Translations under genes and position numbers: made by a program | In this document: positions 21,499 to 55,724 of the stretch, one piece after another | Numbering within the stretch: the stretch's first letter is position 1 | How the letters are laid out: every line of letters starts with the position of its first letter | Assembly: GCA_963751455.1 (NCBI GenBank) | Contig: CAVVUN010000001.1 | Span: forward strand, 640,001-704,000 | Source of the DNA: Nitrospirota bacterium | Lineage (GTDB): Bacteria > Nitrospirota > UBA9217 | DNA length: 64,000 nt | Direction: 5' to 3' | Notes under the pieces: generated by a model | Databases searched by the model: none | Told to the model about the DNA's origin: nothing | The model's input: the letters and a program-made list of their open reading frames with translations, nothing else

Positions 21499-21882
21499 AT
21501 GAAGATAATCAGCACTGTATTTTTTTTCTTTTTGGTTTTATCTTCGTCCGTTCTGGCCGACGACAGACATACATGGACAACCGGCGATTCGCTTCTGCAG
21601 TCGGCCCTGATCGGCCTGATAGTCGTCGACTGGCACCAAACCAGGGAGTTTACAAGTAAGCGGCAAAAATATCCGACCAAATATGAAAGCAATCCGCTGC
21701 TGAAGGCGCATCCCTCCGCTCGCGAAGTTAACAGTGTAATAGTCGGGTGCATACTAGTGCATACCGGCATAGCATACCTGCTGCCGAAACCCTACCGGAC
21801 AATATGGCAGAGTTTATGGCTCGGCGTCGAAGTGGACGCGGTCTATGCCAATTACAGGGCCGGAATCACTTTCAGCTTTTAA
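21499..21882 (+). CDS. Small exported/membrane hypothetical protein, paralog 1
   Basis: Signal peptide (..SSVLA-DD); W...D..LQ, DWHQTREF, YESNPLL..HPS, LPKPYRTIWQS; C-terminal Phe. Confidence 0.75.
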   Translation: MKIISTVFFFFLVLSSSVLADDRHTWTTGDSLLQSALIGLIVVDWHQTREFTSKRQKYPTKYESNPLLKAHPSAREVNSVIVGCILVHTGIAYLLPKPYRTIWQSLWLGVEVDAVYANYRAGITFSF

Positions 21883-21912
21883 CAGTGCGACTTCAACGAG
21901 GGGACCGGAAAC

Positions 21913-22312
21913 AATGAACATCAAGCAGCGAGCTGCCAGCGTCCCGTTATTGTTACTTTGTTTATTGCTTGCTGCGCCGGTCTCTGCCGCTGATAACCAT
22001 GCGTGGTCGGCATCCGACACTGCGCTGCAAGCTACATTCATTCTGCTCACGGCCATGGAATGGCGGCAAACAAGGGAATTTACAAATCATCGAAGCAGAT
22101 ATTCCGAAACGTACACCGTCAGCCCGTTCTTAAGCGAGCATCCCACAGCCCACGATGCTAACAGGCTGGCTGCGGCTTCAATAATTGTTCATACAGGCCT
22201 GGCCTACGCGCTTCCCAGGCCGTACCGTACGATCTGGCAAAGCTTCTGGATCGGCGTCCAGGGAGGCTCGGTTCTTTCAAATTACGTGGCCTGCATCAGT
22301 GTCAGATTTTAA
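21913..22312 (+). CDS. Small exported/membrane hypothetical protein, paralog 2
   Basis: Signal peptide (..PVSA-AD); EWRQTREF and LPRPYRTIWQS are shared with paralog 1. Start at ATG 21913. Confidence 0.75.
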
Positions 22313-23997: not shown

Positions 23998-24032
23998 TAG
24001 GGAGGCTTCAGAATAATTCTAAAGCCTCCCTA
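23998..24032. terminator. Hairpin terminator between convergent genes
   Basis: tagggaggctt...aagcctcccta stem preceded by an A-run, which is the U-tract on the minus strand. Confidence 0.75.
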
Positions 24033-24045
24033 TCAACGTACATTG

Positions 24046-27000
24046 CTACCTCAACCTGATTCCGGTATTCCCGCCTGACACCTTCACCCCATACTTCAAA
24101 CTATCAGGATACGCAATCAGGTTTCTTATTTCCGTCCCATCAGCCTTGAATATCTTCACTGTCGGATCGTTCTGCGGACAGGGTCCCGCGCCGGCAATGA
24201 CTTCATCCACTCCATCGCCGTCAAGATCAGCGCTCGATACGTTCACGCCATACTTCAAGCTCGATTCATACGCTGCAAATTCCCGGACCAGGGTCCCATC
24301 GGCTTTATATATCCTGATCGCTGATGAATTCTTTGGGTCAGATCCGGCGCCGGCGATAATCTCTGATTTCCCGTCTCCATCCATGTCTCCAGACGTAATA
24401 TTTACTCCATAAGTTCCTTCAAATGCGGTGAAGGTGGTTAGCGGAGTAAGGTCGCTAGACTCATATTTCCATATAGTAACGGATGCGTCGTTATTCGGTC
24501 CGGGTCCGGGCGCTGTAATGATCTCAGGTATGTTGTCTCCATCGATGTCTCCGGCTGTTATATTCAGCCCGTAAGAACTCTGGCTATTCACAGTGTGGGC
24601 TATTATCTGAGTGAATCCGGCGCTCGTATATTTAAGCACTTTCAGGATGCCAGGATTCTTCGGGTCAGGGCCGGCGCCCACGATCAATTCATCGACCCAG
24701 TCCCCGTCCAGATCGCCGGACGCAAGCGTCAACCCGTATTTCGTGTCAAACGCCGCGTATTCAGCAAGGAGCGAACCGTCTCTCTTGAAAGCCCTGAACG
24801 TCGCGCCGTTCTTCGGGTCCGGTCCCTGTGCGACGATTATTTCGTCATAACCGTCGCCGTCGATATCAGCCGAAATTGCATTTGCGCCGTACTTCGTATC
24901 GAACGCCTTGAATTCCTTAATAAGCTCCGCGTTGCCGTCATAGAGCCGTACCAGCGCCTCATTCTGCGGACCCGGCCCGGCTGAAGCGATAATGCCAGGA
25001 GCGATATCCGGGTTCTGCTGGATAACCAGATTCAGGTTCAAGTCATGGCGGACTAGTCCATCGTCTCCAGTCACCGTGAGGGCATACGTGCCCGGCTTAA
25101 CGTATTTCGATGTCAAAACAGTCAAAGCAGCCTGTCCAGGGACTGAGGTTTGAGCACTATCCAGGGACGCTCTTACACCATACGGCAATCCTGTAACTGT
25201 CAAACCCACAACGCCTTCGTAACCATTGAGCGCCGAAATGCTTATCGGCAGAGCCGAGGATTCGAGTTGCTTTATTGTCCGGCTCAACTCCGCTGCTTCC
25301 ATTCCGAAACCGGACACATCGAGGGTAAGCGGTACTGTATGCGTCACGATTTCGCCCTCATCCGTCCCCTGCGCAGTCAGGTACAAGGTATGCGTTCCTG
25401 TAACCGTCTTGTCCGTTGCAATCACTAAAGTCTCTGACTGGCCGGGTAGCATTAATCTATCCGGGTTGAACGTTACAGTCGCGCCGGCCGGTAAACCATC
25501 AATGTTCATCGACGTTTCATTGTTCCATCCATTCAAAGGTGTCAAAGTTGCGATGAATGAGGCTGTTTCCCCCTGTTTAATCCTTGCACTGGTTTCGTCG
25601 AGGATAATGGTAAAATCTGGCGCTTTGTTAAGAGCTATGAGCTTCGTGCTCGAAATTGAACTTTCGATCATGGTATCGGCTATAGTGTATGCGCCGTCCA
25701 CTGCCAGCCCTGCTGTGTTCCACACTTGTGAGAAGGTGGTCCTCATTGATGGCGGCAGCGCGCCTAGATTCGTAATGTTCGTATATGCCGCATTGCCTGA
25801 GGAGTCCTTAGCAGTCGTCATTATGGCAGCTCCATTATAGGTGGTTGATGCCGTCAGGTTCATGATGGTGGAGGTGATGTATACCTTCTGCCTGATCTTA
25901 TAGGTATCTTTGTCTGTTTCGGTAAGAATCGCAAGCTCAGGTATTTTAACAGCCATGCTTCCGCTGTTATTATTTTCATTGAACTCTGTAACTGTATTCC
26001 CTTCATTTACTTTTACCGTGATCGAATGATCTCCAGCCTTGCCGAGGATATTCCAAGAAACCGCAACAGTTTCATATTCTCCCAAATTCAGCGCTCTAAC
26101 CGATTTAGTGTCAATCAGAGTTTCACCATCATGGAAAGCTACGATCGCATCACCGGAGGCAGTCCTGCCCTGATTCATGATAGTTGCTGTAATTTGGATG
26201 GTGCTATCCGGTTTGATATCAGTCACCCCTACGCTGGTAATTTTCAAATCCGGCAAATCGCTTCCGTAAATAAAACTTGTCTCTTTTGTGCTGGTGAGAC
26301 CGTCAGCGGTCAAAACCGCTTTAAGAATATGAGAACCGGGTGATACGTCTGACAAATCATAGCTCACAGTTGCGAAACCATCGAGCGGGGCCGTTTCTGT
26401 GCGAACTAAAGCGCCGTCTACCAGCAGTTCGAGTGCAGCGTCAGCGGTACCGAACATATTCGCCTTTACGACAACCGGCTCCGATGTGAGGTTGTAAACC
26501 GTCTTATCTGTGCCAATCCCCAGAAGCACCGCGTCACCTACATCGAACGCCTCTGACCCGGATGACAGAAGCAGATCACCCGAATAGAGACCGTACACCA
26601 GGCGATGGATTCCGCTTAATGCAGTTCGGAGTTGTGAGTTCACAGTTGTGAGTAAGGGTTCAGACGGAGAAAGTATAATCGCGCTCTCCCCTGCAGGTGT
26701 ATACTTTTCCATTGGATCTACAACCCAGCTCTTAAGGATCACCGGAAGATCGATATTGCTCGTTAGAGTAAGGTTAGCGGTGATGGCGTCTGTTTTTGTG
26801 TATTTGCCCTTATCCAGTTTTGCTTCAATTATCTTGACTTGAATGCCGCTTACGTCAATAGGATGTGAAACAGTAATGGATTCAGAGTTTTGAGTTTTAA
26901 GTTGAACGTTTATGTTATACGTTCCAGCCGTCATTGTTGACGGAAGAGGAATGTGCTTCGATGCCGATCCGGTAAACCCAACAGTCTCAGAATATCCGCC

Positions 27001-27717
27001 AGGTCCTGTTAAAATCATCTGCCCGCTCACACCCATCCGCACGCTGCTTACTGTGACGTTTACTGTATCGCCGGGATTATACACCTGTTTGTCCGCAGTG
27101 ATCGTCAGTACATCTCCGGCTTTATAGAGATAGATGGAATTCAAATGTATTGACCGGCCTCCAGCGTGATAGACGCCGTAGAAAAGCTTCTCTCCGGTGA
27201 TCTGATCGAGTGGAATGTCAAACGTGAGCGACTGATTGCCGTTTAAGGTCAAGGATTTTTGTTCTTCATGACCTGAATAATTGACTCTTGCAAACAGATC
27301 GAAGCTGGTCAGCTGCTCTCCATTGTCCTCAATCCGGAGAGTTAATCTCGCCGTATCTCCGACTGAATAGATCTGCTTATCCAGCGAAGCGGTAACGGCG
27401 ATGTTGATTCCCTCGAGATGGTACTTCACTTGACCTTTTGCTACGCCTGCGTCCGCAGTGGAGAGAGCCGGGGTGAGGGTATACTGGGCAAAGTAATCAT
27501 TTTCCTCCAAGTCTTCGGGTAAGAGAATCCCGAACGTCACCGTCGTCTCTTCTCCGGGCTTAAGCCAAACCGGTTGAGTTGAGTCGATGAGGTCGTATGC
27601 ATTGAAAGTAAAATCGAAGCTCCCTTCCTGATTGCCGGTGTTCCTGACCCTGAAGTCAAACGTTCCTTCCTCTCCTGCCCTAAAGGTCTGATATGGCGGC
27701 AGCTGAGTAATCTTCAA
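24046..27717 (-). CDS. C-terminal third of giant secreted protein 1: Ig-like domains, CARDB and about 6 FG-GAP/VCBS-like repeats
   Basis: LPDLKI...NQG...EFNENNN (CARDB) and repeated GDxDGDxxxEIIxGxGPxPxN. No signal peptide or RBS; continues ORF 27680..35278 after a +1 indel (GCA ACA CTT GAA G versus GCA ACA CTG AAG). Confidence 0.85.
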   Translation of the reverse strand: MKITQLPPYQTFRAGEEGTFDFRVRNTGNQEGSFDFTFNAYDLIDSTQPVWLKPGEETTVTFGILLPEDLEENDYFAQYTLTPALSTADAGVAKGQVKYHLEGINIAVTASLDKQIYSVGDTARLTLRIEDNGEQLTSFDLFARVNYSGHEEQKSLTLNGNQSLTFDIPLDQITGEKLFYGVYHAGGRSIHLNSIYLYKAGDVLTITADKQVYNPGDTVNVTVSSVRMGVSGQMILTGPGGYSETVGFTGSASKHIPLPSTMTAGTYNINVQLKTQNSESITVSHPIDVSGIQVKIIEAKLDKGKYTKTDAITANLTLTSNIDLPVILKSWVVDPMEKYTPAGESAIILSPSEPLLTTVNSQLRTALSGIHRLVYGLYSGDLLLSSGSEAFDVGDAVLLGIGTDKTVYNLTSEPVVVKANMFGTADAALELLVDGALVRTETAPLDGFATVSYDLSDVSPGSHILKAVLTADGLTSTKETSFIYGSDLPDLKITSVGVTDIKPDSTIQITATIMNQGRTASGDAIVAFHDGETLIDTKSVRALNLGEYETVAVSWNILGKAGDHSITVKVNEGNTVTEFNENNNSGSMAVKIPELAILTETDKDTYKIRQKVYITSTIMNLTASTTYNGAAIMTTAKDSSGNAAYTNITNLGALPPSMRTTFSQVWNTAGLAVDGAYTIADTMIESSISSTKLIALNKAPDFTIILDETSARIKQGETASFIATLTPLNGWNNETSMNIDGLPAGATVTFNPDRLMLPGQSETLVIATDKTVTGTHTLYLTAQGTDEGEIVTHTVPLTLDVSGFGMEAAELSRTIKQLESSALPISISALNGYEGVVGLTVTGLPYGVRASLDSAQTSVPGQAALTVLTSKYVKPGTYALTVTGDDGLVRHDLNLNLVIQQNPDIAPGIIASAGPGPQNEALVRLYDGNAELIKEFKAFDTKYGANAISADIDGDGYDEIIVAQGPDPKNGATFRAFKRDGSLLAEYAAFDTKYGLTLASGDLDGDWVDELIVGAGPDPKNPGILKVLKYTSAGFTQIIAHTVNSQSSYGLNITAGDIDGDNIPEIITAPGPGPNNDASVTIWKYESSDLTPLTTFTAFEGTYGVNITSGDMDGDGKSEIIAGAGSDPKNSSAIRIYKADGTLVREFAAYESSLKYGVNVSSADLDGDGVDEVIAGAGPCPQNDPTVKIFKADGTEIRNLIAYPDSLKYGVKVSGGNTGIRLR

Positions 27718-30700
27718 GTGTTGCGCCTTGAATTACAAGCGATGAGTTTCGTGCCGTTAACTGGGTGCCGCTTTTGTTCAGGAGTGACATCTTTACCGTA
27801 AACGCACCCGGCATCATGGCTGCTGGATTAACGTTAAAAGACATAGTTAGTGAGGTGCCCGTTGTGAGTTGACTTATAGTTTGTTCAGCATTCCAAACAA
27901 CATCGCCATTCTCATTTGTAATTTCGCATCTAGCGTTTCCTTCGATCGTGTTGTATCCGTTGTTCAAAAAATTGACGGAGACAGGGATCAACTCACCATT
28001 CTGCGACCCGACAGTTAATGCCATGTCAACCACATTCTCTTTGCGGACAGAGAAATTGACATTCGTTGTCGCTGTTGGAGATGAGCTTAGAGCCATGAGT
28101 TGATAATCGCCTTCGGTAAGATCGTAATACAGCATGTCGGAAATACTCGCGCCTAGCTGTAAATAGTAAGATTTTGAAGTTACATTCGGCATATCTCCAT
28201 TTTTACGTAATTCGTAGCTGACGTCGAGCGACGCATCCAACTGTCCTGTATTTACAATCGTTACAGGGACGATGATCTTGCCTTCAGGATATACTGTTTG
28301 AGAACTGACGGTCATCATCGAAGCAAGACCGTAGGCAACGGTCTTCGTCACTGTCTGGTTTAAATCGCCGCTGAAAGTAAACGTGTATTCTGTATTACTT
28401 GCTATCTGCTGCGAATATTGCAATTGCTTCGTTTCACCGGGCTGCAGCCGAATCTGCTGCACGTCTTCAAATCCAGCACTTTGAACGCCACATCCTACAG
28501 ATGCCGCGATCTTTCCCTCGTTCTGGAGTTCAACGTTTATGTCAAACGGCTCGTTTCCCGTCACTTCAGGCATTGAAATGGCTGTTGAAATGTTGGGGCT
28601 AGCCACTTCAAACTGGTCAGCAATCTCCACAAGAGTGGAATTATTTTGCGTCACCCTGCCGGTCAGAACGACCGTTCCATCCGTCACTGCTATTGTTGTT
28701 GCGGAGAATGGATAATTTCCTCCTGCTGCAACGCTGAACGTTTCGGCGTAGATCGTTTCTGTGGTTCCATCTGGCCTCTGTTGGCCAAGCTCTGTCGTCT
28801 GATTCACCGCGTCGACACTCGCCAAATTCCGCACTTCTCCGGTTATGGTCACCGCCTCACCCGGTCTATAAACTTTTTTATCCGTAGCGACCGACAGGAT
28901 CGTATTTCCGGAGACAATGTAAAATGGATATTCCACATTGGCTAAGGTCTGACCAAGGCTGTTTTTGAGTTCCGCTTGGAGGTAAAGCTTTCCTGTAGTA
29001 TTCACGGCCCCGATATCCGTTAAATAGTCCTGCGTCATATCGCCTTCTTGATTGATCGGTAAGCTTGCTGCAAAGAGCGTTTCAATTCCTCCTGGTTGTG
29101 AAAGAGCCATATTCTGGACACGATTGTTCCCGTTATCCACAGCGTAAATTGAACCATCGGATCCGGCAGCCAGACCTCCTGGATAAACAAATTGTCCATT
29201 GTCACTGCCGTATTCGCCCCATTTGGCTAAAAAAGTGCCATTACTGTCAAATTTCTGGATTCGATAGTTTCCAGTGTCTCCAACATAAACCGAGCCATCG
29301 GAATCTATGGCGACCCCTTCCGGCCAGGAAAATTGACCATCACAAGGCTGGTCGGCCACTCCATCACCATCAGAATCAGTACTGCAATAATTACCCAATT
29401 TGCTGATGAAGTTGCCGTCGCTGTCAAATTTCTGAATACGGTTATTTCCATCCGATACATAGATGTAACCTTCAGGACTGATCGCTAAACCCGAAGGATA
29501 ATAAAAATTGCCATCACATTCCTTGTCGGGTATGCCATCCCAATTCGAGTCGGCAATACAACGGGTTCCCCATTTTGATATAAAATTTCCATTCCCATCA
29601 AATTTCTGAATTTGGTGATTAATGTAATCAGCAACATATAAAAACCCTCTCTGATCTGCTCCTATGCCGTATGGGCCAAGGAACCCCCCCTTGCATTCCC
29701 TGTCAGGTATGCCGTCCCAATTCGTGTCCACAATACAACGGGTCCCCCATTTTGATATAAAGTTTCCATTCGCATCTAATTTCTGGATAAGATTATTATC
29801 ATAATCGGTAACATACACGGACCCGTCTGTGCTTACAGCAATACCCATAGGCCATGAAAATTTTCCGTCACATTCTTTGTCAGAAATCCCATCCCAGTTA
29901 CTGTCTGTACGGCAATAATTACCCGTTTGACTTACAAAATTGCCGCTGGCATCATATTTCTGAATACGACTGTTATAACTGTCAGTCACGTAGAGGGAGC
30001 CATCTGGCGCTGCTGCTACCCCATATGGCGAATATAACAGACCTTCACATAGATGTTCAGGATTGCCGTCATAGTTGCTGTCCGTCTGGCAGTAGCTCTC
30101 CCATGTAGTAACTAAATTTCCATTATTGTCAAATTTAAGAATATTATCTATCCCCTCAACAGTAGCTTCAGCATATATTGATCCATCACGAGTAATAGCA
30201 ATGCCATAAGGCGAACCATCCAAATCCCACGAAGTGACATAGTTTCCATTTTCATCAAATTTCAGGATACGTTTAGCACCGTAATCAGTTGAATATACAG
30301 AACCGTCAGGACCTACACCAAGCCCAAATATCCAAGAGAGCCCTCCGTAAGCAGTGTTATCGTCTCCCCAACTCATTATAAAATTCCCACTGCTGTCAAA
30401 CTTCTGAATCCGATGATTACCTGCGTCCGCTACATACAAAGAACCATCAACTCCTACACATAAACCTTCAGGGGTCATAAACTGCCCATCAAGCCATCCC
30501 CAATCGCCGATTATCGCAATAAAATTCCCATTGCTGTCGAATTTTTGAACGCGATCATGGCCGGTATCCGACACATAAACAAAACCGTCAACGCTTACGG
30601 CTACACTCTTAGGAGTGTCGAATTGTCCGTTCAGCCATCCTGAAGTGCCCCAGGCAGCGATAAAATTTCCGAACGCGTCAAACTTCTGAATACGGTTGTT

Positions 30701-33700
30701 GCCGGTATCCGCTACATATACAGATCCATCTGGTCCCACAGCAATACCCATTGGGTAATTGAATTGCCCGTAATTTTCTCCACTGCGACCCCAAACAGAG
30801 ACCAATTTTCCGGTTTTATCAAGCCTTAAGATGCGGTCGTAAGCGGAATCAGTTACGTAAAGAGAACCATCAGAACCAGCGGCTATACCATATGAACCGA
30901 AAGGAGGAAACCAGTTTTCATTGGGTAGAAAATGAACAAATCCTCTCGACGATTCCCCGCTTTTTTGCATTCTCTTCACGGCGAGTTCTAAACTGCCGCC
31001 GTTTATGCCGAATTTCCCATTAGCAATATTCGACAATGCAGTCAGTGATTCATTTTTTAAATAGACACCTTTATTCGTACTCGACTGTAATTGAGCCGTC
31101 GGCCCTTCGATGTCAAGTTGCCTATAATAAGTGGAATGATTTCCTGTTCTCACATCCTTCACTTGAACGTCCAACTGAGCAGGTCCGTTTAAAGTCTGTG
31201 CTGGCATTTGAACATCGAGCATCTGAGCTGATCCAGCCAGGATCTCACCGCTGGCATTGCCGGAAAAAACAACTATTCCTTTATTGTCATAGACAGCAAT
31301 TTTTTCCGCTAGATACGTTGTATCCACTCCACCTGTATTTTTTATGCTTAGGTTAATGGAATCACCGGCGATGATTGAATCGGAACCAGTGTAGTCTATA
31401 CCTAACAGCGATTCGGGTACTGTGAACACGACATTTTTTGCGATCTCACTTCCGGTCGGAAGTGTCAAAGCTATAGCGACTGCATGCTGGCCCGGTAAGA
31501 TAGAAGCAGGGATAGGAATGGCTAGTTTGACTGTTGAAGTTTGGGCAGTGGCGACAGTTTCTATCTCACTATGGCTATAGTTTATATCTGGGGCTGCTAC
31601 TGACACTGAAAGATTGTCAAGATTAAACTTCCCTCCATTGATAATGGCAATGGTGAGATACGATGTTTCTCTTACACTATAAGATGACTTGTCAAAAGAA
31701 GCCATAACTGTAGGAGTATTTGGGATAATAATTCCACCGCTTTGTGTTTTTCCTTGATTGTTCAAAGAATAGATTAGGCTATAATCCCCGAAGCGAGGGT
31801 TTTCGATTGGTATCGAAACATTAATTGTCGCCGTTTGGCCTGCCTGTAGAGACTGAAGCTGCTCATGGCTATCCCATATCACGGCCCCATCTGGATCTTT
31901 GAGAGATAGTGAAAGGGTAGCACAAGAAACTGGTAAAAGACCATTGTTTTTGATAGCAAAAGTTATATAGCTATTCGATCCAAACACGGGAGGGGTAATT
32001 GGCGTAACAGAAAGTAGTGTTTTGATCAACTCAAAGCTTGATCTCGTGTAGCCAATTTTTCTTGTCCCTAAATATGCATCTACTGAAACAGAGTAGAAAC
32101 CATATTTCGCGGCAGAAGGGAGATAAAAATTTAAGGTCCGCGTGGTTATCTCGTCAGCAAGAAGGTTTATATCAAGAGTTGAGCTGAAAATCTCGTCATT
32201 GTAAGGATCTGTCACACGCACCTGAAGCGCGGATGGATAACCGATATCCAATTTATTTTGAATGTTCAGTTCAATCTTTACTTCCTCTCCTGCCTCATAA
32301 CGGATATCGTTGGTCATCGAAGATACATAAATTGAAGGATTTATCATCCATATTCCTCTTTCGGCATATCCAATTTGCATCCCGCGTTCATCTAATAATT
32401 TCGCTCTCAATCTGTCTGTACCACGAACATTGTCTAAAATGTAATCAAAGCTGAGATGACTGTTTGCCGGAATCGTAATGGCCTTATTAAAATAACTATC
32501 CCATCCGAAAGAATGATGTGCTAAACCCCAGGTTACGGTAAGGTTTCGTTCGGTACCGCTATTATTCCAAATATGAAAAGTAAACGACGCACTTGAACCT
32601 GCGAAATAATTCTCAGAAGCGCTCTGAACCGATAAATTTAAATCCGGGCTCTTAAACGGATTGCTTAGCGGATTGTTTACGACAAATCTCCCTGAATCGG
32701 TCTCTGCCAGAGACTGAATGATATTGCCATGATTATCTAATAGTGTATAATCAATCTGCCAAATACCCACTGGACTTGCGGATGAGCTTGCGAACATGAA
32801 TGGCACTGAAATCAGTTGCCCTGCGGGAACAAGCTGTGATATGTCCTGTGTCAGCTGAACGTTTTTTGCTGGATCGAGCACCTTCAATTGAACATAGGAG
32901 GCATCTGTAGTGGTAGTGTTCGAAACAACGAGCAATAGCGAAGCTGTTTCACCGGGTTTTATATCCGGCAGCAGTACGGCTGATTTCGCCCAGGTTATCA
33001 TGTCCCTTACCAGAGACCGTTCTTCAGCACTGGCCTGTCCGTGCCCAAAAGCCCAATCCGAATACATACTGGTTACTATTACTCTACCCTGACCGTGTTC
33101 ATACATGATCAGTGCAGGCTGCCCATTGGCCGTCCTACGCAAAATTACGGTCGCGGTTGAAGGGAAACTCGTAAAGTATCCATCCACATTGATGGTTGGT
33201 ATGGGCCAACTTTGACCTGACAAAATCTGATGCCAGGTATCAAAGTAAACCGCATTAGTAAAACACGATTGATCTTCAGTCCATCCATACCCTGAAATTG
33301 GTTTGCCATCGGGCGTAGGCAACACCTCGAATTCATATCCATGCTGTTGTGCAAAAACTATTAACGTGCCTCCGACTTTCACATACTCATCCAACTGGGT
33401 TTTGAGGACAGATGAACCGTTGAGACCGTACAGGCCCGCCGAAGGGACAATCAATACCGGATGGTTTTGCACGATATCCGGTGAAAATGATGTCTCTACA
33501 AGCGTGTATGGTTCACCCATCTTATATAACATCATTTGCAAAGACCCGCTGAACCCGTTTGCAAGGATCGCCAGATCGGGAATCGTCTTGAATTCAGACT
33601 TCTCCGCTTTATTCAGACCGTCTAATTCTCTGATGACTTGCAGCTTTCGTGCATTCATTTCCTTGAGCGTCGGGTCGGTTATCTCTAACACCTGCTTGAG

Positions 33701-35263
33701 GTCACGGGTTATCGCCTCTTCGCCGTCCAATACAGGTTGATTGCGATAGTATTCTTCCTCACTGCGTTCCAAATTCTCCAGCTCTTTTTTCAGGAGATAG
33801 CTTTTGACTGTTGCAGTCTTGTTTTTCTTCACTGCCAGGCGCACCAGTTTATCTGCGGTAGCCGGTTGTGCATCTATTATTGAAGTCGAAGCTACATCAT
33901 AATTATCGTCGGGATGATCATTGCCCGGACAGTCCGGCGGAGGAGCCCCTTCCGCCAGGGGTTTGATCACCAAAAAACTCGGTATCAGGGTTCCCTTATC
34001 CTGGGAATCGGTTACAAACAGATCCACGTGAAAACTTTTTTGCGTATTCGTAACATTGCACGGGTCGGATGCAGGAACTGCCACATTGAATGAGAAATCG
34101 TAATTCGGCATAGCGGCAGGATTTATATCGTATGGTGAACCAACAGGGAGAACCTCGGGATCGCTATCAAGAGTGCTAGCACCCACGCTTTGGTTCACAA
34201 AATTGGACACAAGAGATACACTTTTCCATTCAGGAAGATAATGATACCTGCCTATTGCTTTCGACACTCCTGTTCCATATATCGGTTGCAAAGTGTATAC
34301 CTTTTGACCAATTCCGGTATTGTCATAGTTCAGCATATAGGATATGGATTTTATCAACAGATCGTTATCGTCAAATACTCCTCCCAGTTCTATTGTGGCA
34401 GGACCCTGTGTATAAATTACATTCGTCAGATTCGCGTTCATATTTGAATAAATTGCCTCACCGTTGTTGTCCATGACTTTTACATAAGAAAGCTGCGAAA
34501 TGGGCGCGCCTGCATCTGGTAGGTATCGCAACGGGTCTTGCAATGTGCCCGCCGCATCTCTTACTTCGAAGTGGAGATGAGGTCCGCCCAGATTGGCTGA
34601 ATAGGCGTCGACGCCATAGTTGCTTCCATTCCATGTTACCGTTGCATTGCCTGATGCGCCGCTTCTAGCCAATCTAGTTCCAGGCGCAACGATTATTAAA
34701 GTGGAATCCTGTGTAAACTGAGTGAGATGCGCATATAATGTGCTAAATCCTGAATATTGAGCCGAATTGTGAGTCACCCTTGCATACAGACCATAGCCTG
34801 TATTTATGCGGTATGGGCCCTCTCCGACTTGAAGATTGTTATATTGAAATGTCACTGTGCCAGCATCGACTGCATAAACGTCGGTTCCTATAGGCGATGC
34901 AATATCCAGACCGCTATGGCTTCCACCTGCCCTGGATCCAAATAGCCCATGAGTGCTTATGGTCCAGCCGTTCTGTTTATACCAATAAGACTGGTGGCAG
35001 GCGGCATTACTGCACTCTCTATAGCCCCGAACCTTATCGACCGCAAAAGTTTCTGAAACGGGTGCCGGGTCCGGCGTCGCCAGTGAATCCGTTTGATGGT
35101 AGGTATAAGCATATCCACTCTCATTTCTGAGCGGGTTATTCAGCTTGATCGTGTCGGGCAAAGGATTGCTGGGAAAAGCAGCATACGCAACAGAGATAAA
35201 CGCGTCCAAAATCACGAAAGCTGATAAAACTACTGAGCTATAAAGGCGTTTTGTCCTATTCAT
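27680..35263 (-). CDS. Giant secreted protein 1, N-terminal 2,500 aa: signal peptide, M23 peptidase, GATase-like fold, Ig-like domains and NHL propellers
   Basis: Start ATG 35263 behind GGAGGG; signal ends ..AYA-AF. M23 motifs HSGLD, YAHL and GPHLHFEVR. About 11 NHL repeats (P.GIAV..DG.VYV.D..N.RIQKFD) at roughly 29110-30900. Confidence 0.88.
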   Translation of the reverse strand: MNRTKRLYSSVVLSAFVILDAFISVAYAAFPSNPLPDTIKLNNPLRNESGYAYTYHQTDSLATPDPAPVSETFAVDKVRGYRECSNAACHQSYWYKQNGWTISTHGLFGSRAGGSHSGLDIASPIGTDVYAVDAGTVTFQYNNLQVGEGPYRINTGYGLYARVTHNSAQYSGFSTLYAHLTQFTQDSTLIIVAPGTRLARSGASGNATVTWNGSNYGVDAYSANLGGPHLHFEVRDAAGTLQDPLRYLPDAGAPISQLSYVKVMDNNGEAIYSNMNANLTNVIYTQGPATIELGGVFDDNDLLIKSISYMLNYDNTGIGQKVYTLQPIYGTGVSKAIGRYHYLPEWKSVSLVSNFVNQSVGASTLDSDPEVLPVGSPYDINPAAMPNYDFSFNVAVPASDPCNVTNTQKSFHVDLFVTDSQDKGTLIPSFLVIKPLAEGAPPPDCPGNDHPDDNYDVASTSIIDAQPATADKLVRLAVKKNKTATVKSYLLKKELENLERSEEEYYRNQPVLDGEEAITRDLKQVLEITDPTLKEMNARKLQVIRELDGLNKAEKSEFKTIPDLAILANGFSGSLQMMLYKMGEPYTLVETSFSPDIVQNHPVLIVPSAGLYGLNGSSVLKTQLDEYVKVGGTLIVFAQQHGYEFEVLPTPDGKPISGYGWTEDQSCFTNAVYFDTWHQILSGQSWPIPTINVDGYFTSFPSTATVILRRTANGQPALIMYEHGQGRVIVTSMYSDWAFGHGQASAEERSLVRDMITWAKSAVLLPDIKPGETASLLLVVSNTTTTDASYVQLKVLDPAKNVQLTQDISQLVPAGQLISVPFMFASSSASPVGIWQIDYTLLDNHGNIIQSLAETDSGRFVVNNPLSNPFKSPDLNLSVQSASENYFAGSSASFTFHIWNNSGTERNLTVTWGLAHHSFGWDSYFNKAITIPANSHLSFDYILDNVRGTDRLRAKLLDERGMQIGYAERGIWMINPSIYVSSMTNDIRYEAGEEVKIELNIQNKLDIGYPSALQVRVTDPYNDEIFSSTLDINLLADEITTRTLNFYLPSAAKYGFYSVSVDAYLGTRKIGYTRSSFELIKTLLSVTPITPPVFGSNSYITFAIKNNGLLPVSCATLSLSLKDPDGAVIWDSHEQLQSLQAGQTATINVSIPIENPRFGDYSLIYSLNNQGKTQSGGIIIPNTPTVMASFDKSSYSVRETSYLTIAIINGGKFNLDNLSVSVAAPDINYSHSEIETVATAQTSTVKLAIPIPASILPGQHAVAIALTLPTGSEIAKNVVFTVPESLLGIDYTGSDSIIAGDSINLSIKNTGGVDTTYLAEKIAVYDNKGIVVFSGNASGEILAGSAQMLDVQMPAQTLNGPAQLDVQVKDVRTGNHSTYYRQLDIEGPTAQLQSSTNKGVYLKNESLTALSNIANGKFGINGGSLELAVKRMQKSGESSRGFVHFLPNENWFPPFGSYGIAAGSDGSLYVTDSAYDRILRLDKTGKLVSVWGRSGENYGQFNYPMGIAVGPDGSVYVADTGNNRIQKFDAFGNFIAAWGTSGWLNGQFDTPKSVAVSVDGFVYVSDTGHDRVQKFDSNGNFIAIIGDWGWLDGQFMTPEGLCVGVDGSLYVADAGNHRIQKFDSSGNFIMSWGDDNTAYGGLSWIFGLGVGPDGSVYSTDYGAKRILKFDENGNYVTSWDLDGSPYGIAITRDGSIYAEATVEGIDNILKFDNNGNLVTTWESYCQTDSNYDGNPEHLCEGLLYSPYGVAAAPDGSLYVTDSYNSRIQKYDASGNFVSQTGNYCRTDSNWDGISDKECDGKFSWPMGIAVSTDGSVYVTDYDNNLIQKLDANGNFISKWGTRCIVDTNWDGIPDRECKGGFLGPYGIGADQRGFLYVADYINHQIQKFDGNGNFISKWGTRCIADSNWDGIPDKECDGNFYYPSGLAISPEGYIYVSDGNNRIQKFDSDGNFISKLGNYCSTDSDGDGVADQPCDGQFSWPEGVAIDSDGSVYVGDTGNYRIQKFDSNGTFLAKWGEYGSDNGQFVYPGGLAAGSDGSIYAVDNGNNRVQNMALSQPGGIETLFAASLPINQEGDMTQDYLTDIGAVNTTGKLYLQAELKNSLGQTLANVEYPFYIVSGNTILSVATDKKVYRPGEAVTITGEVRNLASVDAVNQTTELGQQRPDGTTETIYAETFSVAAGGNYPFSATTIAVTDGTVVLTGRVTQNNSTLVEIADQFEVASPNISTAISMPEVTGNEPFDINVELQNEGKIAASVGCGVQSAGFEDVQQIRLQPGETKQLQYSQQIASNTEYTFTFSGDLNQTVTKTVAYGLASMMTVSSQTVYPEGKIIVPVTIVNTGQLDASLDVSYELRKNGDMPNVTSKSYYLQLGASISDMLYYDLTEGDYQLMALSSSPTATTNVNFSVRKENVVDMALTVGSQNGELIPVSVNFLNNGYNTIEGNARCEITNENGDVVWNAEQTISQLTTGTSLTMSFNVNPAAMMPGAFTVKMSLLNKSGTQLTARNSSLVIQGATLEDYSAAAISDL

Positions 35264-35278
35264 ATTATAACCCTCCAC

Positions 35279-36577
35279 TTAGAAAGCAATTAAGTTATAA
35301 TTCTTACCGTTCGCGGACAGATATCGTGCATTCTTGGAAAGCGAAAATCCTAAGCTCTTTAAACGAAATGCATAAAGCTCGTTATTTTTTACTATCAAAA
35401 GAACGTTAGCATAGGGATTCGTTTTATCGTGAACAAATTCAATTCCGTTTAAAGCCCACAAATAAATAACTGATCCATCGTCATTCATCGCTATTTTTTC
35501 TACTATCAACCCCACAGTCGAAGGATCCCCAAAATTCAGTGGAACCATAATGTTTGTCTTTATACCGCCATCATTGGCATCAAAGAGATAAAGTTCCATG
35601 TACTTTTTGCGAATGGGAGGTTCTGTTTTTCTTTCGGCAATATATTTCAAGGCAAAAATGCGATACTCGTCATTCGTAATGATTGCGTCATAAAGGTTAT
35701 CGAGCAAATTTGGGAATAAATTTTCATTGCTCCATACCTTGTCTCCATTTCCGGCTTCAAAAACAGCAAGTGTCCGTTGTGATTTTACGAGAATCCGTTG
35801 TCCATCTTTAAACATCTTTCCCCATGTTTCCGAACTGGTCTCTGATTTGCTTTTCATATACTCTCTAATAAATCCACTTTGACATGAAAACAGCTTAACG
35901 CCTACCTTTGATGGGAATTTCAGAATCTTCTTCTCAAAATAGTAAGAATGATCCACCGCAAGGCGGGACAGGATGAATACATCGGACTCGTTGGCAAAGT
36001 GGATTTCGGCTGCAGGATTCGTCAACCCAGGCTCATCATATTTCCAGTGCACTTCGCTCGTCCCGGGATCTATGCTTCTGATCCAATCGTGTCTCTGTTT
36101 CTTATCATCAAAATAACCTCCAAATTCGACGACACATTTGCCATTTAGACTTTGAATCGCATAGAGATGATTATAGTGGCCCTCGTCGCCGAATGCGTCT
36201 CTCTCAAGCCACTTTTTTATCTGCTTTCTCTCTTCCGTTTCAGGAAGCTTTACTTCGGGCTTTTTCTCTTCCTTCGGGAACTCCACTCCGTCAGGAAGTT
36301 TATCAACCACTGGAAATACATCATCCAGCGTGGGCAAATCTTTCAGACTGCCCCATGTAACGACCGGCAACCCTTCTTCACTCACCACTTCCTTGCCGCG
36401 AGCACGTTCGAGAGCCGATAGTTGTTGTTTCGCCTTTGCGCCTGCTTGTTGCTCAGACTGTTGAGTGGCACTATTCTGTGGTTGGACTGGAGTGCCACCC
36501 TCTTTTGTTTTCTTACAAGCGAAGGAGAGAAAGCAGATAACAGATAGCGCGATACTAACGAATATGATTTTCTTCAT
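35279..36577 (-). CDS. Lipoprotein B, candidate immunity/partner protein of the giant
   Basis: MKKIIFVSIALSVICFLSFA-C lipobox, Q/P-rich tether, beta-propeller-like C-terminal part; directly upstream of the giant gene. Confidence 0.8.
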   Translation of the reverse strand: MKKIIFVSIALSVICFLSFACKKTKEGGTPVQPQNSATQQSEQQAGAKAKQQLSALERARGKEVVSEEGLPVVTWGSLKDLPTLDDVFPVVDKLPDGVEFPKEEKKPEVKLPETEERKQIKKWLERDAFGDEGHYNHLYAIQSLNGKCVVEFGGYFDDKKQRHDWIRSIDPGTSEVHWKYDEPGLTNPAAEIHFANESDVFILSRLAVDHSYYFEKKILKFPSKVGVKLFSCQSGFIREYMKSKSETSSETWGKMFKDGQRILVKSQRTLAVFEAGNGDKVWSNENLFPNLLDNLYDAIITNDEYRIFALKYIAERKTEPPIRKKYMELYLFDANDGGIKTNIMVPLNFGDPSTVGLIVEKIAMNDDGSVIYLWALNGIEFVHDKTNPYANVLLIVKNNELYAFRLKSLGFSLSKNARYLSANGKNYNLIAF

Positions 36578-36593
36578 TTTTTCTTTCCTCCAT

Positions 36594-37132
36594 CGTCATA
36601 TGAGCATATAGTGTGCTTACTCCGGAATATTAAACAGAATTGTGAGTCACCCGTACGTATAGACCGTAGCCCGTATTGATACGGTATGGTCCTCTCCGAC
36701 TTGTAGATTGTTATATTGAAATGTCACAGTGCCAGCATCGACTGCATAAACGTCGGTTCCTATAGGCGCTGCAATATCCAGACCGCTATGGCTTCCACCT
36801 GCCCTGGATCCAAATAGCCCATGAGTGCTTATGGTCCAGCCGTTCTGTTTATACCAATAAGACTGGTGGCAGGCGGCGTTACTACATTCTCGGAACCCTT
36901 TGACTTTATCGACAATGAAATTTTCAGAAGCCGGCGACGGATTCGGCATAGTAAGAGAATTTGTTGGAACGTATGAATACGTATAGCCAGCTTCATTCCT
37001 GAGTGGATTGTTCATTTTAACCGTATCAGGTAGCGGGTTATTGGGGAAAACGGCAAAGGCGGGATAAACGCAAACAAATAACAGAGAAATAAAAAGAATA
37101 CCCGGCAGAAAAATTGTATTCATGCTTTTCAT
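36594..37132 (-). pseudogene. Truncated duplicate of the giant's N-terminus (signal peptide plus first half of M23)
   Basis: Matches 34730-35200. Carries a -1 indel at about 36690 and an in-frame TAA where the giant has CAA, and breaks off after STLYAHMT at the RBS of lipoprotein B. Confidence 0.88.
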
Positions 37133-38445
37133 TTTCTCCCCTCCCCTGATATTAATTGCAAACTATAATATTTGCCGTCAGCAGCCAAGTATTTACCATC
37201 GCTGGAAAAGGCAAAACCAAAAGATTCTATTCGAAATGCATACGCGGCTCCAGCATGAGTCACCAAGAGTAGGATATTATCGTATGGATTTTTAACGTCG
37301 CCTTTAACTTGCCAGGAGGCATATTTATAGTCCATTAACCAAATGCCTGTGAGTAATCCGTCTTTTGAAACATCAAATCTTGTGTTCGTTAAATACAAGG
37401 CGTTTTTGTCACCAAGATTCGTATTTACTTTATTAGACCAGACCTCTTTTCCCGTTTTCAGCTCAAGAAGTCGATATATATCGCAGCACATGTTCTTCTT
37501 TGCATGTTGCGGGTCATGGTAGTCCACAAACAAATACGTCCCATCTGGTGAACTATTAATGGTTTGAACAACATAGCCGCTGTATTCATTTTTTTTTTGC
37601 CATTCCAAATGCCCGCCAGTATCAAACGACTCAATAGTGCCCTTAGTAGTGGCAATAATCATGTCTTTACCTTTGTCGCTCAGTATCCCCGCTACCATGG
37701 AACCAACTTCTTCTTCGCTCTTCATATATTCAAAAAGAAGTCCACTCCGGCAGGAAAATACTTTAACCCCTCTCCTTGGAGGGTATGCAACGAGTTTCTT
37801 TTCAAAATAATAAGAATGGGCCGTTCTTACATCGGACAGTAGAAAGATATCTGCTTCCAGTGCAAAAACTACCTCTACCCCCGGATTCGTCAGCCCAGGC
37901 TCATCGTACTTCCAGAGAATCTCATTCGTTTTTGGGTCGATTGACCTCAACCAGTCTTCTCGTTTTCTCTTAGCATCGAAGTAGCCGCCAAACTCGACAA
38001 TGCAATTCCCGTTGGGGCTTTTAAGTGCGTACAAGTGATTGCGACGTCCTTCATCCCCCTCTGCGTCCCTCTCAAGCCATTTCTTTATTTGCTTCCTCTC
38101 ATCCGTTTCAGGAAGCTTTACTTCGGGCTTCTTCTCTTCCCTTGGGAACTCCACCCCCTCAGGAAGCTTATCGACGACCGAAAAGACCTCGTCCAGCGAC
38201 GGCAAATCTTTCAAGCTCCCCCAGGTAACGACCGGCAAGCCCTCTTCGCTCATTACTTCCTTGCCGCGAGCGCGTTCGAGAGCCGATGGTTGTTGTTTCG
38301 CCTTTGCGCCTGTTTGTTGCTCGGGCTGTTGAGTGGCGCTATTCTGTGGTTGGACTGGAGTGAAACCCTCTTTTGTTTTCTTACAAGCGAAGGAGAGAAA
38401 GCATATAATAGATAGCGCGATACTACAGAATATGATTTTCTTCAT
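37129..38445 (-). CDS. Lipoprotein A, paralog of lipoprotein B
   Basis: MKKIIFCSIALSIICFLSFA-C lipobox behind GGAGGG. N-terminal half highly similar to 35279..36577, C-terminal half diverged. Confidence 0.8.
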   Translation of the reverse strand: MKKIIFCSIALSIICFLSFACKKTKEGFTPVQPQNSATQQPEQQTGAKAKQQPSALERARGKEVMSEEGLPVVTWGSLKDLPSLDEVFSVVDKLPEGVEFPREEKKPEVKLPETDERKQIKKWLERDAEGDEGRRNHLYALKSPNGNCIVEFGGYFDAKRKREDWLRSIDPKTNEILWKYDEPGLTNPGVEVVFALEADIFLLSDVRTAHSYYFEKKLVAYPPRRGVKVFSCRSGLLFEYMKSEEEVGSMVAGILSDKGKDMIIATTKGTIESFDTGGHLEWQKKNEYSGYVVQTINSSPDGTYLFVDYHDPQHAKKNMCCDIYRLLELKTGKEVWSNKVNTNLGDKNALYLTNTRFDVSKDGLLTGIWLMDYKYASWQVKGDVKNPYDNILLLVTHAGAAYAFRIESFGFAFSSDGKYLAADGKYYSLQLISGEGRK

Positions 38446-38755
38446 TTTCTTCCCTCCATCGATCACTGACCGATGATTGATTAACAACTCAGTTTTTTAT
38501 TAGCTGATTTTTTTGACTCGTTGGTAGGGATACAAGGTGCATTTCAGCAAAGCTTTACAAACGGGTGGAACGAAAAACGAAAATTTGTATTGCTTGACTT
38601 GAATGCTTGTGCGGATACATTCTGGAATGTAACCTGATTATTGTCGAGCTGAACTAGTTTGTCAAGGTTTTCGATGGTATTATATACGTATGCCTGTCAA
38701 ATTGAAGATATAGAAAATGTGTTAATGAAGGTATTATGACATGAAAATATCGAAG

Positions 38756-50139: not shown

Positions 50140-50670
50140 TTACCATGTATTGTAAGCCGTGCCATCGACAGCAAGCAGGTCACTGGCGCTATGCACATCG
50201 AATACGCCGCCATCTGCGCCATCGGCCGGACTGACCGTAATCCAGTCGGCTTCACCGGTGAAAGGGTCCTTCGGCAAATCGCGCAGATAGCTGCGGGAGC
50301 GGTCTTCGCTATTTATCAGATCTGCCAGCTGCTCAGGGTACTTGCCGCTGTCCGCGTAAAACTGATCGATCGCCTCCCGCATCTGGAACAGGTCCTCTTT
50401 CAAAACCGACTCCCTGGCCTTGACAATCGACTGTTTCAGGTTGGGCTGAGCGATCGTAATCAGGATGCCCATGATCGCCATAACTATCATGAGCTCGAGC
50501 AGGGTAAAGCCGTTTGATTTCGGATTGCAGATACTTGCACCCGATGCCTTCGAGTGCGTCGGCGCGAGAGTGGGGTGTTCGGATTGCGGATTGCTACTGC
50601 CAAACGGCGCACGCATCTTTTCCTGCCTGTTTGAGTTTTTCTCGATTATTCTCATAAGCCATCTGATCAT
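50140..50670 (-). CDS. Type II secretion pseudopilin (OxpG/GspG-like)
   Basis: Class III prepilin site G-FTLLE; ARESVLKEDLFQMREAIDQFYAD.GKYP, YLR.LP.DPFT. Confidence 0.88.
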   Translation of the reverse strand: MIRWLMRIIEKNSNRQEKMRAPFGSSNPQSEHPTLAPTHSKASGASICNPKSNGFTLLELMIVMAIMGILITIAQPNLKQSIVKARESVLKEDLFQMREAIDQFYADSGKYPEQLADLINSEDRSRSYLRDLPKDPFTGEADWITVSPADGADGGVFDVHSASDLLAVDGTAYNTW

Positions 50671-50906
50671 ATGGACTTGCCGTCTTTCATAGCTATGCTT
50701 TATGCAAAGATATTTTTACTCAATCCGCCTGCACCCAGCCTGTGCCCAGCGATTACGAGTGCATTTGCGCGAGTGCAGGGTACGTTTATGAGACCCTTGA
50801 TTCCCGTCTCTGCGGTCATTGATTCCCGTCGCACGTATCTCAGCGCGATGGCCGATAAAGAGTCTAAGCCTTACTCAGCGAGATGGTACGACAATGAGTC
50901 TAAGTA

Positions 50907-51036
50907 GAGTTTGTATTTTAACTTCCATTTCATCATGTACCGTCATTCCAGCGAAAGCTGGAATCCAGTCTTTTCATAACCTTCTGGATGCCGGATCAAG
51001 TCCGGCATGACAAAGAAGACATTTAAAAACAGACTC
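50907..51036. mobile_element. MITE with imperfect 15-bp TIRs, 6-bp target duplication TAAGTA and an internal CGTC-type REP doublet
   Basis: gagtttgtattttaa versus reverse complement of right end gagtctgtttttaaa (12/15). taagta at 50901-50906 and 51037-51042. Internal cgtcattccagcgaaagctggaatccag...ctggatgccggatcaagtccggcatgac. Confidence 0.7.
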
Positions 51037-51087
51037 TAAGTATTGCGGCATCGCGAGTGCAGGGTGAAATTCGAAATGTTTTTATCC

Positions 51088-51666
51088 CTACCACGTCTTG
51101 TACGCCGAGCCGTCGATGGAGGTGGCGTCGCTTTTGGAGTATACGTCGAACACGTTATCGCCGCCCCACTCCGTTGAATTAGGCTCGTCCTTATAGGAGC
51201 GAAGTCCCCAGTTATTCGGATCTTCAGCGGACGAGAGCGGCACCATGGGATCGCGCGGTATACGCCTCAGATACTTCTTCGTCTTGTCGACGGCCCCGGC
51301 CATTTTGAGCGGCTCCGTGAGCAATTCGAGCGATTCCGGGTAATAGTCGAGGTCCGCCTTGCAGTAATCCGATGAGAGCTTTTCCGTCCCGGCACCGGGA
51401 GTACAATCCTTGCGGAATGCGTCGATCGCTCCGCGAAGAACACGAAGAGCGCTCCTCAGTTCCATCTCTTTCACTCGCTTCACGGTAATGCGCGATAGGG
51501 GCATGGCAGCGCTTGCAAGTATGCCCACGATCGCAATAACAACGAGAAGTTCTATCAGGGTAATCCCCTTTTCGGCCTTCATTGGAAATTGGAAATTGAA
51601 AATATCAAATTTTAAAAGTTTATTGTTCATTGTTTCATAATTCAATTTCCACTCTTCAATCTTCAA
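51088..51666 (-). CDS. Type II secretion pseudopilin (PulG/GspG-like)
   Basis: G-ITLIE prepilin site; KEMELRSALR, YLRRIPRDPM, WGLRSY. Start uncertain (51582-51666). Confidence 0.88.
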   Translation of the reverse strand: MKIEEWKLNYETMNNKLLKFDIFNFQFPMKAEKGITLIELLVVIAIVGILASAAMPLSRITVKRVKEMELRSALRVLRGAIDAFRKDCTPGAGTEKLSSDYCKADLDYYPESLELLTEPLKMAGAVDKTKKYLRRIPRDPMVPLSSAEDPNNWGLRSYKDEPNSTEWGGDNVFDVYSKSDATSIDGSAYKTW

Positions 51667-51696
51667 TTTTCAATTCGGCATTCTCAAGTGCGTTCC

Positions 51697-54042: not shown

Positions 54043-54080
54043 CGTCCTCCTCCTGACCGTTCTTGTGCCATTCCCATCTC

Positions 54081-54689
54081 CTATTTCGCCGCTCCGGAAA
54101 GTTCAACACGCAATTCGACGCGGGTAGCTGTGTCGAGCAGGATCACAAAATCGTTGCCCGCATCCTTAATCGTGTAACTCTTGACGACCGTGTCTCCCCG
54201 CTTGTTTATGAACAGCTCTCCGTCCTTGGACAAAAAGAGTGAACTTTCCTTGTCCGTCACGTAACCCAGGAATCGGAACTTCGCGAGTTCGGCCCGTGCC
54301 GCTTCGGCCGCAGCCCGTGCTGCTTCAGCCGCGATCTCCTCGGGCGTCTTGACCGGGGGCGGCGGGGGCTCAGTGGGGGTAGGAGCGGTCACGGGTACCG
54401 GTACAGCTTTGGGCTTCGGCGGCGCAGGGTTCTCCATTCTGAAAATATCACGACTAACACCGGCGTATTTTTCCTGCCGGCGGCTGAGGAACATTTGAAG
54501 CGGGTCTGTAACGTCCGCCGGAGCTGCTATTCCTGTTCGGAGCGATGAAGTGGCAACCGCTCCCCGGGTGTATGTGAGAGGGGCAGTGGCCGGCTTATCT
54601 GCTGAGATGAAGCGGTATGTTATCAGCGCCGCCAGAACGGCAAACAGTGCAATCAGCGCTTTCTTCTGTTGTTCAGGGCTCGCTATCAT
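54081..54689 (-). CDS. PulP/PilP-position membrane-anchored Pro-rich protein
   Basis: N-terminal TM, RDIF, Pro-rich linker, FRFLGY; located between the PilO-like gene and the secretin. Confidence 0.7.
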   Translation of the reverse strand: MIASPEQQKKALIALFAVLAALITYRFISADKPATAPLTYTRGAVATSSLRTGIAAPADVTDPLQMFLSRRQEKYAGVSRDIFRMENPAPPKPKAVPVPVTAPTPTEPPPPPVKTPEEIAAEAARAAAEAARAELAKFRFLGYVTDKESSLFLSKDGELFINKRGDTVVKSYTIKDAGNDFVILLDTATRVELRVELSGAAK

Positions 54690-55261: not shown

Positions 55262-55724
55262 TCGACTGGTGTTTGAGATAGGGATCTTTGAACCGGGCGG
55301 ACTTTTCCAGTCCTACTATCAGGTTCCTGAGCGATTCAGGCGAGTGCGCCAACCCGTCAAGCGTCAGGACACGGTCCCGGGGGTTTAAATCGATATGATC
55401 GACCGCCACGCCGACGGGGAAACTATTTTCAATGTCGGTCAAAAGCCTTGTCCAGGAAAACCTGCGCGTTTCCATGAGGCCCGACATGGAGATGAGGTCC
55501 TGCATGACCCGGTCGCGTTCGGCCAGGAGAGGACTCAGGGCCTCCTCGGCGGCTTTAAGTTCTTTGACTTTCCGGTCCAGCAACGCGCTTTCCGTGCGCA
55601 GCCCGGCGCCGACCCGGATGATCAGCACAGACGCAATAGCCAGCAGAACCGCGCCTATAGTCAGTCCATTCTGAATCCGGGTGATAAGACGGTAACTCTT
55701 GCTGGAGAAATTGATCGATATCAT
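55182..55724 (-). CDS. PilN-like assembly protein
   Basis: INF motif at the N-terminus, TM, coiled coil, SWTRLL.DIE..FP.GV. Confidence 0.85.
   Translation of the reverse strand: MISINFSSKSYRLITRIQNGLTIGAVLLAIASVLIIRVGAGLRTESALLDRKVKELKAAEEALSPLLAERDRVMQDLISMSGLMETRRFSWTRLLTDIENSFPVGVAVDHIDLNPRDRVLTLDGLAHSPESLRNLIVGLEKSARFKDPYLKHQSIDKGSISFNVVAHYSENKSAGVAQGK

Follow-up and report, generated by a model that had tools for sequence, protein, structure and literature searches.

In a 64,000-nucleotide stretch of a Nitrospirota genome (GenBank assembly GCA_963751455.1, contig CAVVUN010000001.1, positions 640,001 to 704,000; hereafter the window), a minus-strand unit encodes two lipoproteins, a broken M23 peptidase head and a giant secreted protein that carries an intact M23 peptidase at its N-terminus. 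This locus is probably a back-to-front polymorphic antibacterial toxin, whose exchangeable N-terminal head is predicted to cleave the envelopes of neighbours and whose exported partner, encoded upstream, would bind and block that head. Comparison of related sequences gives good support for a real genomic signature of a modular toxin with its partner, from which we infer the antibacterial and immunity roles. The giant protein belongs to a secreted family of bacteria and archaea that is apparently undescribed.

The transcription order given in an earlier note on this DNA—lipoprotein A, broken M23 head, lipoprotein B, giant gene—is borne out on the minus strand. The unit lies between a surA-like gene on one side and a terminator-like hairpin on the other, and its features are:

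38637..38665, minus strand: sigma-70-like promoter match (11/12), weak, as the regional match total is below the shuffled expectation
37129..38445, minus strand: lipoprotein A, ATG at 38445, 438 amino acids (aa); putative immunity protein, orphan partner of the displaced head
36595..37132, minus strand: decayed, truncated M23 head, whose start at 37132 overlaps the stop of lipoprotein A
35279..36577, minus strand: lipoprotein B, 432 aa; cognate partner, putative immunity protein
33920..35263, minus strand: head of the giant protein, with a Sec-type signal (by eye), an M23 Zn-peptidase and an extension of ~200 aa
33905..33919, minus strand: DHPDD junction motif at the border of head and scaffold; family consensus PG[GN]D[HN]PD[DE]
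32981..33589, minus strand: domain with a class I glutamine-amidotransferase (GATase)-like fold and a conserved EDQSC
29099..30910 (limits approximate), minus strand: block of NHL beta-propeller repeats, which not all family members have
27680..35263, minus strand: giant gene, open reading frame (ORF) 1, 2,527 aa, ending at a frameshift as assembled
24046..27717, minus strand: giant gene, ORF 2, 1,223 aa, with MG2-like/Ig, CARDB and C-terminal FG-GAP repeats
23998..24032, minus strand: terminator-like hairpin, 16 bp with T-tail, closing the unit

As the note had read it, the head of the giant protein is an intact M23 domain (Pfam M23, E 4.5e-13) with both zinc-ligand motifs, HxxxD (HSGLD, 34918) and HxH (HLHFE, 34579), and YAHL (34735) between them. 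The NHL, CARDB, FG-GAP and Ig-type (MG2-like) modules behind it are matched by Pfam, and an AlphaFold model (pLDDT 90.6) together with fold searches bears out the GATase-like fold. The Pro/Asp stretch described as a linker is present, but it is the conserved junction motif of the family rather than a mere linker. By contrast, the broken head upstream spans only the signal peptide to YAHx and is devoid of the HxH zinc motif, the junction and the scaffold. It carries a 1-nt deletion near 36692 and an in-frame stop at 36632, its homology ends at 36595, right behind YAHx, and it has an identical run of 108 nt in common with the intact head.

Lipoprotein B ends 16 nt ahead of the giant gene and is modelled as a beta-propeller (pLDDT 78.7; fold search). 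Lipoprotein A, with an LSFAC lipobox (by eye), is 54% identical to it overall, a value that falls from 90 to 62 to 30% along three successive parts. A tandem duplication of B was considered and rejected because the last part of A, only 30% identical to B, is 51% identical to P0122; on these alignments lipoprotein A is a mosaic, not a plain copy. The GC content of the locus is 44.5%, compared with 51.4 ± 3.3% for the genome (4% of 1,271 windows are lower), and GC3 is 0.38–0.53 versus 0.57–0.71 in eight neighbouring genes. The lipoproteins and the 5′ part are thus AT-richer, as had been judged by eye, although the difference is not confined to them: low GC spans most of the stalk.

A search with scaffold residues 560–1150 as query returned 126 proteins, 120 of which were listed. 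A set of 158 loci came from genome and metagenome scans, with the best 80 taken from 103 and from 255 confirmed matches. These range over WOR-3, Chloroflexota, Paenibacillus and several archaeal groups; the nearest named relatives are in Nitrospirota and Desulfobacterota assemblies. The search bore out the note's expectation that lytic N-termini would vary on a common scaffold and that upstream exported partners would vary with them. BLAST sorts the heads into singletons and 12 multi-member clusters, or into 30 clusters when the first 200 residues are used. Pfam, applied to 42 of them, recognised Zn-phospholipase C, M23, Amidase_6, NlpC/P60, lipase, M10, EEP, thioredoxin and Rhs, with 12 heads giving no match. 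Three head types are Zn-phospholipase C (PLC)-like: the largest head cluster matches a solved phospholipase C (E 5e-7), and metal-site motifs are retained in 24/29, 8/8 and 6/6 aligned PLC-like heads. Alignment of the three clusters with hhalign gave no link (probability ~7%), and a common fold is suggested by Pfam and PDB matches and by motifs read by eye. A search with the window's head among proteins of 1,392–4,431 aa turned up P0005 alone besides the window's own protein. Headless members have just 40–80 residues following the start.

Rhs heads consist of an Rhs core and a variable tip ahead of the junction. In archaea and Chloroflexota, whole Rhs proteins with variable tips are fused before the DHPDD scaffold (L052, L058, L060, L067, L099), and these loci have no coupled upstream partner. 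Two Paenibacillus loci (L057, L063), which are cultured carriers, have heads without a signal peptide that end in a long hydrophobic stretch, and an upstream partner family of their own.

The far end varies as well: C-termini of relatives carry FG-GAP, PKD, type IX secretion system (T9SS) sorting domains (L094, L065), CHU_C (L061) or PGF-CTERM (L055), and crude motif counts find NHL-like repeats in 29/120 and FG-GAP-like repeats in 28/120 proteins. The stalk, which the note had taken to be constant, is modular, and its C-termini and NHL block rule a constant stalk out. What is more constant is the junction. A loose D[HN]PD[DE]-type pattern lies 15–106 residues ahead of the conserved domain in 102 of the 112 proteins having at least 30 residues before the scaffold. 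In the GATase-like domain behind it, an alignment shows no Cys at the canonical nucleophile elbow. The Cys of EDQSC is invariant in 108/108 aligned rows, a figure that is not independent because the rows were partly chosen by the junction and EDQS patterns; an independent count, truncated proteins included, finds an EDQSC-like motif in 92/120 homologues. Fold matches (VIA Z 15–16, rmsd ~3, 175–193 residues aligned) are mostly non-catalytic GH42, IFT52 and ThuA-like domains. The junction profile had no significant match among PDB sequences, and an ESM Atlas search gave only unnamed clusters or weak leads. Three stand-alone secreted proteins (L196-L198, 376–387 aa), which adjoin ppx and recG-like genes in another family, consist of a signal, DQPDD and a GATase-like domain, which shows that the junction module has a head-independent role. 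Identity with alpha-2-macroglobulin was rejected: matches are limited to MG2/BRD Ig-like domains, and the thioester is missing (CxEQ in neither ORF, GCxEQ in 0/120 homologues).

For a survey of the genes upstream, 100 of the 158 loci were kept, all of them non-redundant and with an unbroken 5′ end, a recognised junction and no less than 450 nt of upstream sequence. A gene was called coupled when it was co-oriented, at least 120 aa long and ended within −70 to +60 nt of the giant-gene start. Such a gene is present in 58/62 loci of six hydrolase-head clusters—three of the four uncoupled ones have broken heads, with an ORF that starts internally—as well as at 3/7 singleton heads and 2/2 Paenibacillus loci, and in 0/15 loci with thioredoxin, Rhs or unassigned heads. 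By a crude pattern, most of the partners have a lipobox or a Sec-like signal. Their folds differ by head and include carboxypeptidase-regulatory-like plus TPR, HEAT, beta-propeller and a small membrane protein. The lipoprotein B family numbers just 11 relatives up to E 1e-10, lipoprotein A among them; it recurs upstream of the same M23 head type in L110, and a search of 40 related genomes did not find it.

Partners and heads vary together. Among 62 dereplicated loci there are 362 pairs with a common partner family, and 352 of them also have a common head family, compared with a mean of 78 and a maximum of 153 in 2,000 shuffles. Within the largest family (24 N1/U1 loci), the identity of partners follows that of heads (rho 0.86, and 0.80 with the scaffold held constant) and not that of the scaffold (0.13). 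Heads and partners are ~42% identical within one enzyme family, while the scaffold is 62% identical.

That the N-terminus is exchangeable can be demonstrated on individual swaps. The DNA of L123 and L129/L130 (three assemblies) is 97–98% identical starting 55 nt ahead of DHPDD, yet their heads are 40% identical and their partners different. P0066 and P0081 have heads of different clusters, GATase domains that are 45% identical and distal stalks that are 88% identical. Segment trees were built from 73 rows, namely the window and the 72 proteins that have every segment (8 states). The GATase tree needs 10 changes of head type and four trees of downstream segments need 24–26; shuffling gives ~35 on average. 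The downstream segments are mutually concordant (rho 0.47–0.68), and less so with the GATase segment (0.20–0.48). These few changes on the GATase tree and many downstream indicate that the mobile unit is usually partner, head, junction and GATase domain.

The remnant in the window also has counterparts. Among 40 non-redundant loci, for which at least 700 nt upstream of the partner were required and orphans were listed by eye, 12 show the same pattern of a truncated old head ahead of the current partner and the full gene, and the old heads are mostly preceded by their own partner. The remnant ends ahead of the scaffold in 12 of 13 checked (L093 retains 114 scaffold residues), and in L116, L159 and L090 it stems from another head type. 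Twelve orphan partners were examined, one of which had no match and one of which lay at a contig edge; eight of the ten assessable look full-length. The window's genome itself has a second locus with the order partner, broken head, partner and giant (L191, G000:C6:46370-61207): a BNR-propeller gene, a frameshifted head cut off by an insertion sequence (IS), another propeller gene with 48% identity, and a giant of 2,501 aa. The latter has a papain-like head (weak C39 match, E 0.07) and shares the distal stalk, but not the GATase junction.

In the mechanism that we propose, the giant protein would be exported by Sec and fold in the periplasm, where the lipoprotein would keep the enzyme inactive. 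Exit would follow the host's own route, by T9SS or archaeosortase in members with the matching C-terminal tails and probably by a type II secretion system (T2SS) here, and since sorting or anchoring occurs at the C-terminus, the warhead would need to sit at the far N-terminal tip. New cassettes of partner, head and junction, usually with the GATase-like domain, would enter by recombination between homologous scaffolds and interrupt the old head, so that the old partner and a truncated head stay behind upstream. This would mirror the displacement proposed for the Vibrio cholerae type VI secretion system (T6SS), in which a new effector–immunity module takes the place of the old effector, whose immunity gene is kept along with a fragment of the effector itself (PMC5361080); that array grows downstream, the present one upstream. 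Old partners that are kept would protect from kin still carrying the old head.

A T2SS route for the window protein is plausible because of the secretins, a T2SS-like operon within the window and the genomic setting of headless relatives. The window's genome has five secretins, including a GspC/D/E/F cluster, with GspK below its cut-off, and the operon at 50140-56662 encodes two pseudopilins, a TPR-secretin-cohesin protein, PilO and PilN. Headless relatives of ~1,400 aa have the junction, the GATase domain and the first Ig module, and match the CARDB region more weakly. Fifteen of their loci (L199, L200, L203-L215) were fetched out of 21 family genomes with a match, and in 14 of these the headless protein is encoded within a gspF-gspE-gene-pseudopilin operon. 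At L200, a lipoprotein gene and a PLC-headed 861-aa gene are found upstream instead, and at G000 C15:1089593-1092992 the gspF-gspE operon is present without the large gene. More tentatively, and with more doubt than confidence, the family might be seen as surface-tethered, toxin-first weapons across bacteria and archaea. Here, DHPDD and the GATase fold would form a universal socket that takes cargo of any kind, even a whole Rhs toxin, and serves either docking on the tip of a type II secretion/type IV filament or self-cleaving release of the head, with the C-terminus swapped independently to suit each host's sorting system (T2SS, T9SS, archaeosortase).

The giant gene of the window is itself split as assembled by a +1 frameshift near 27,720, outside a homopolymer. 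The protein of ~3,740 aa described in the note is therefore not a single ORF, though reading through the frameshift does give 3,738 aa. Homologues are uninterrupted at this site, with ORF 2 in frame with ORF 1, and the closest of them (P0005, 3,708 aa, same head type) aligns with both halves at ~49–54% identity along their length. The frameshift may have disarmed or shortened the protein, and we see an even chance that, within a genuine toxin family, the window's copy is a decaying locus that has lost its C-terminal third, which would be compatible with any of the readings discussed here. The position outside a homopolymer argues for such decay, related loci of the same genome are IS-broken, and indel errors are not rampant in a genome with 18 intact ORFs of more than 2,000 aa and 100% completeness by markers. 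Yet both halves are otherwise intact and alignable to P0005, so the lesion must be either very recent or an assembly error.

It is unlikely, though worth weighing, that the protein is instead a surface-displayed enzyme for scavenging, predation or biofilm remodelling. Its head would digest dead cells, prey or matrix, its partner would guard only the producer's wall and membrane during periplasmic transit, and swaps would reflect substrate range rather than kin conflict. The named hydrolase heads all have envelope polymers or lipids as substrates, adhesin-like modules occur in the stalk, and no injection system was seen (VipB, the sole T6SS marker searched, was not found in the window's genome); moreover, an inhibitor would be needed even without kin conflict because Sec export exposes the producer's periplasm. 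What this explanation leaves unaccounted for are the intact old partners that persist after head loss—in the window, at the C6 locus and for eight of ten orphans—and the rapid joint divergence of heads and partners relative to the scaffold. Very improbable is a head-specific chaperone, activator or assembly partner on a giant that is mainly an adhesin or pilus-tip protein: the generic binding folds of the partners (TPR, HEAT, beta-propeller) and the operon setting of the headless relatives would fit, but there is no reason to retain the chaperone of a lost head, and unrelated partner folds pair with related PLC-like heads, with a small membrane protein among the partners, the pattern expected of immunity genes.

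Several observations weigh against the back-to-front toxin that we favour. Linkage within a co-transferred cassette would alone yield co-variation, and kin are not independent; the counts are inflated by both and are therefore evidence of a cassette rather than of binding. The contrast of 58/62 with 0/15 coupled loci is confounded by lineage because the latter group is mostly from archaea and Chloroflexota, and 6 of 14 headless members have a coupled upstream gene, too. Such headless members, together with thioredoxin-headed ones, show that the scaffold does not depend on a hydrolase to work. When a tree is built from the first 330 residues of the scaffold, head types come out nearly monophyletic (8 head changes, 7 states, 56 rows), so cross-family swaps exactly at the junction must be rare. 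Remnants are by-products of displacement and no proof of selection; the other two of the ten assessable orphan partners are broken, scaffold ORFs end early in 25 of 96 relatives, and the window's own giant gene is frameshifted. Finally, with VipB not found in a genome that is complete by markers, no delivery route into the periplasm of a Gram-negative target is evident.

Lysostaphin and zoocin A are likewise secreted, with an M23 catalytic domain in front of a binding part, and have an immunity gene linked to them, but they are small and not polymorphic; immunity there relies on wall modification (Fem-like) and not on a binding lipoprotein. The note's claim that no described system has this layout is too strong, because two families injected by other machineries are already toxin-first with upstream immunity. 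The X-Tfe/X-Tfi pairs of the Xanthomonas type IV secretion system (T4SS) combine variable N-terminal M23, NlpC/P60, lipase, M10 or amidase domains with a conserved C-terminal part, and their immunity genes are usually upstream and encode periplasmic lipoproteins (PMC6536674). Their C-terminal part is a ~120-aa XVIPCD for VirB/D4 injection (PMC6536674), whereas the present proteins have a Sec-type signal, a modular stalk of ~3,000 aa, a DHPDD/GATase junction and upstream remnant arrays. The window's C-terminal ORF yielded no XVIPCD match, only CARDB, MG2 and, last, FG-GAP, and identity with X-Tfe was rejected on this basis. WHIX subclass II effectors (Awe1/AwiU) have an N-terminal M23-like or NlpC/P60 toxin and an upstream exported immunity protein shown to bind, but they travel by T6SS, carry a WHIX domain and have another toxin at the C-terminus (PMC12135965); here, VipB was not found in the window's genome, no second C-terminal toxin is evident and Sec export is predicted.

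With CdiA, Rhs, MafB and TANFOR (PMC3482391, PMC7073777), the family shares a giant conserved carrier with a tip exchangeable at a conserved border motif, an adjacent co-varying partner and orphan cassettes. The arrangement is reversed here, with an N-terminal tip and with partner and orphans upstream, and the named hydrolase heads aim at the envelope rather than at nucleic acids. The hallmarks of polymorphic toxins are thus present—unrelated toxin-like domains swapped on a conserved carrier, a co-varying neighbour gene, orphan cassettes—except that an N-terminal enzyme with an upstream coupled gene takes the place of a C-terminal toxin with downstream immunity. VARTIG is variable C-terminally, with genes downstream (PMC8416519). 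A term search of a giant-gene preprint (10.1101/2023.11.21.568195) gave no match to M23, polymorphic, lipoprotein or Nitrospir. Full-text literature searches turned up no account of the scaffold or of its upstream remnant arrays, with coverage that excludes most subscription papers and the supplements of PMC3482391, PMC12419801 and PMC12135965, possible places for such architectures.

The family would add contact-range antibacterial proteins to uncultured Nitrospirota, Desulfobacterota, WOR-3, Bacillota and archaea, in which weapons are almost unknown. It offers a rule, namely that C-terminal sorting forces toxin, immunity gene and orphan arrays to the front, and screens restricted to C-termini would overlook such systems. 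It also supplies many candidate enzyme–inhibitor pairs (M23, phospholipase C, amidase) that are directly testable in Escherichia coli, and adds a conserved junction module.

Further genes of note occur in the window and its genome. Directly upstream of the T2SS-like operon, from window position 56973 to 64000 and on to G000:C1:707969, lies another giant FG-GAP/CARDB/fn3 gene in pieces, broken by a 410-aa IS-like ORF with eight genome copies; a gene for a secreted protein of 430 aa lies 24 nt ahead of this giant gene. At G000:C9:229575-233850, a U1-like secreted gene is followed by a PLC-like head gene broken by an IS, and G000:C4:51500-72616 encodes a 7,038-aa secreted protein with the same C-terminal motif as the C6 giant. 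On the plus strand of the window, at 21499-22312, two tandem, similar-looking genes encode small membrane proteins of 127 and 155 aa with no Pfam match above cut-off.

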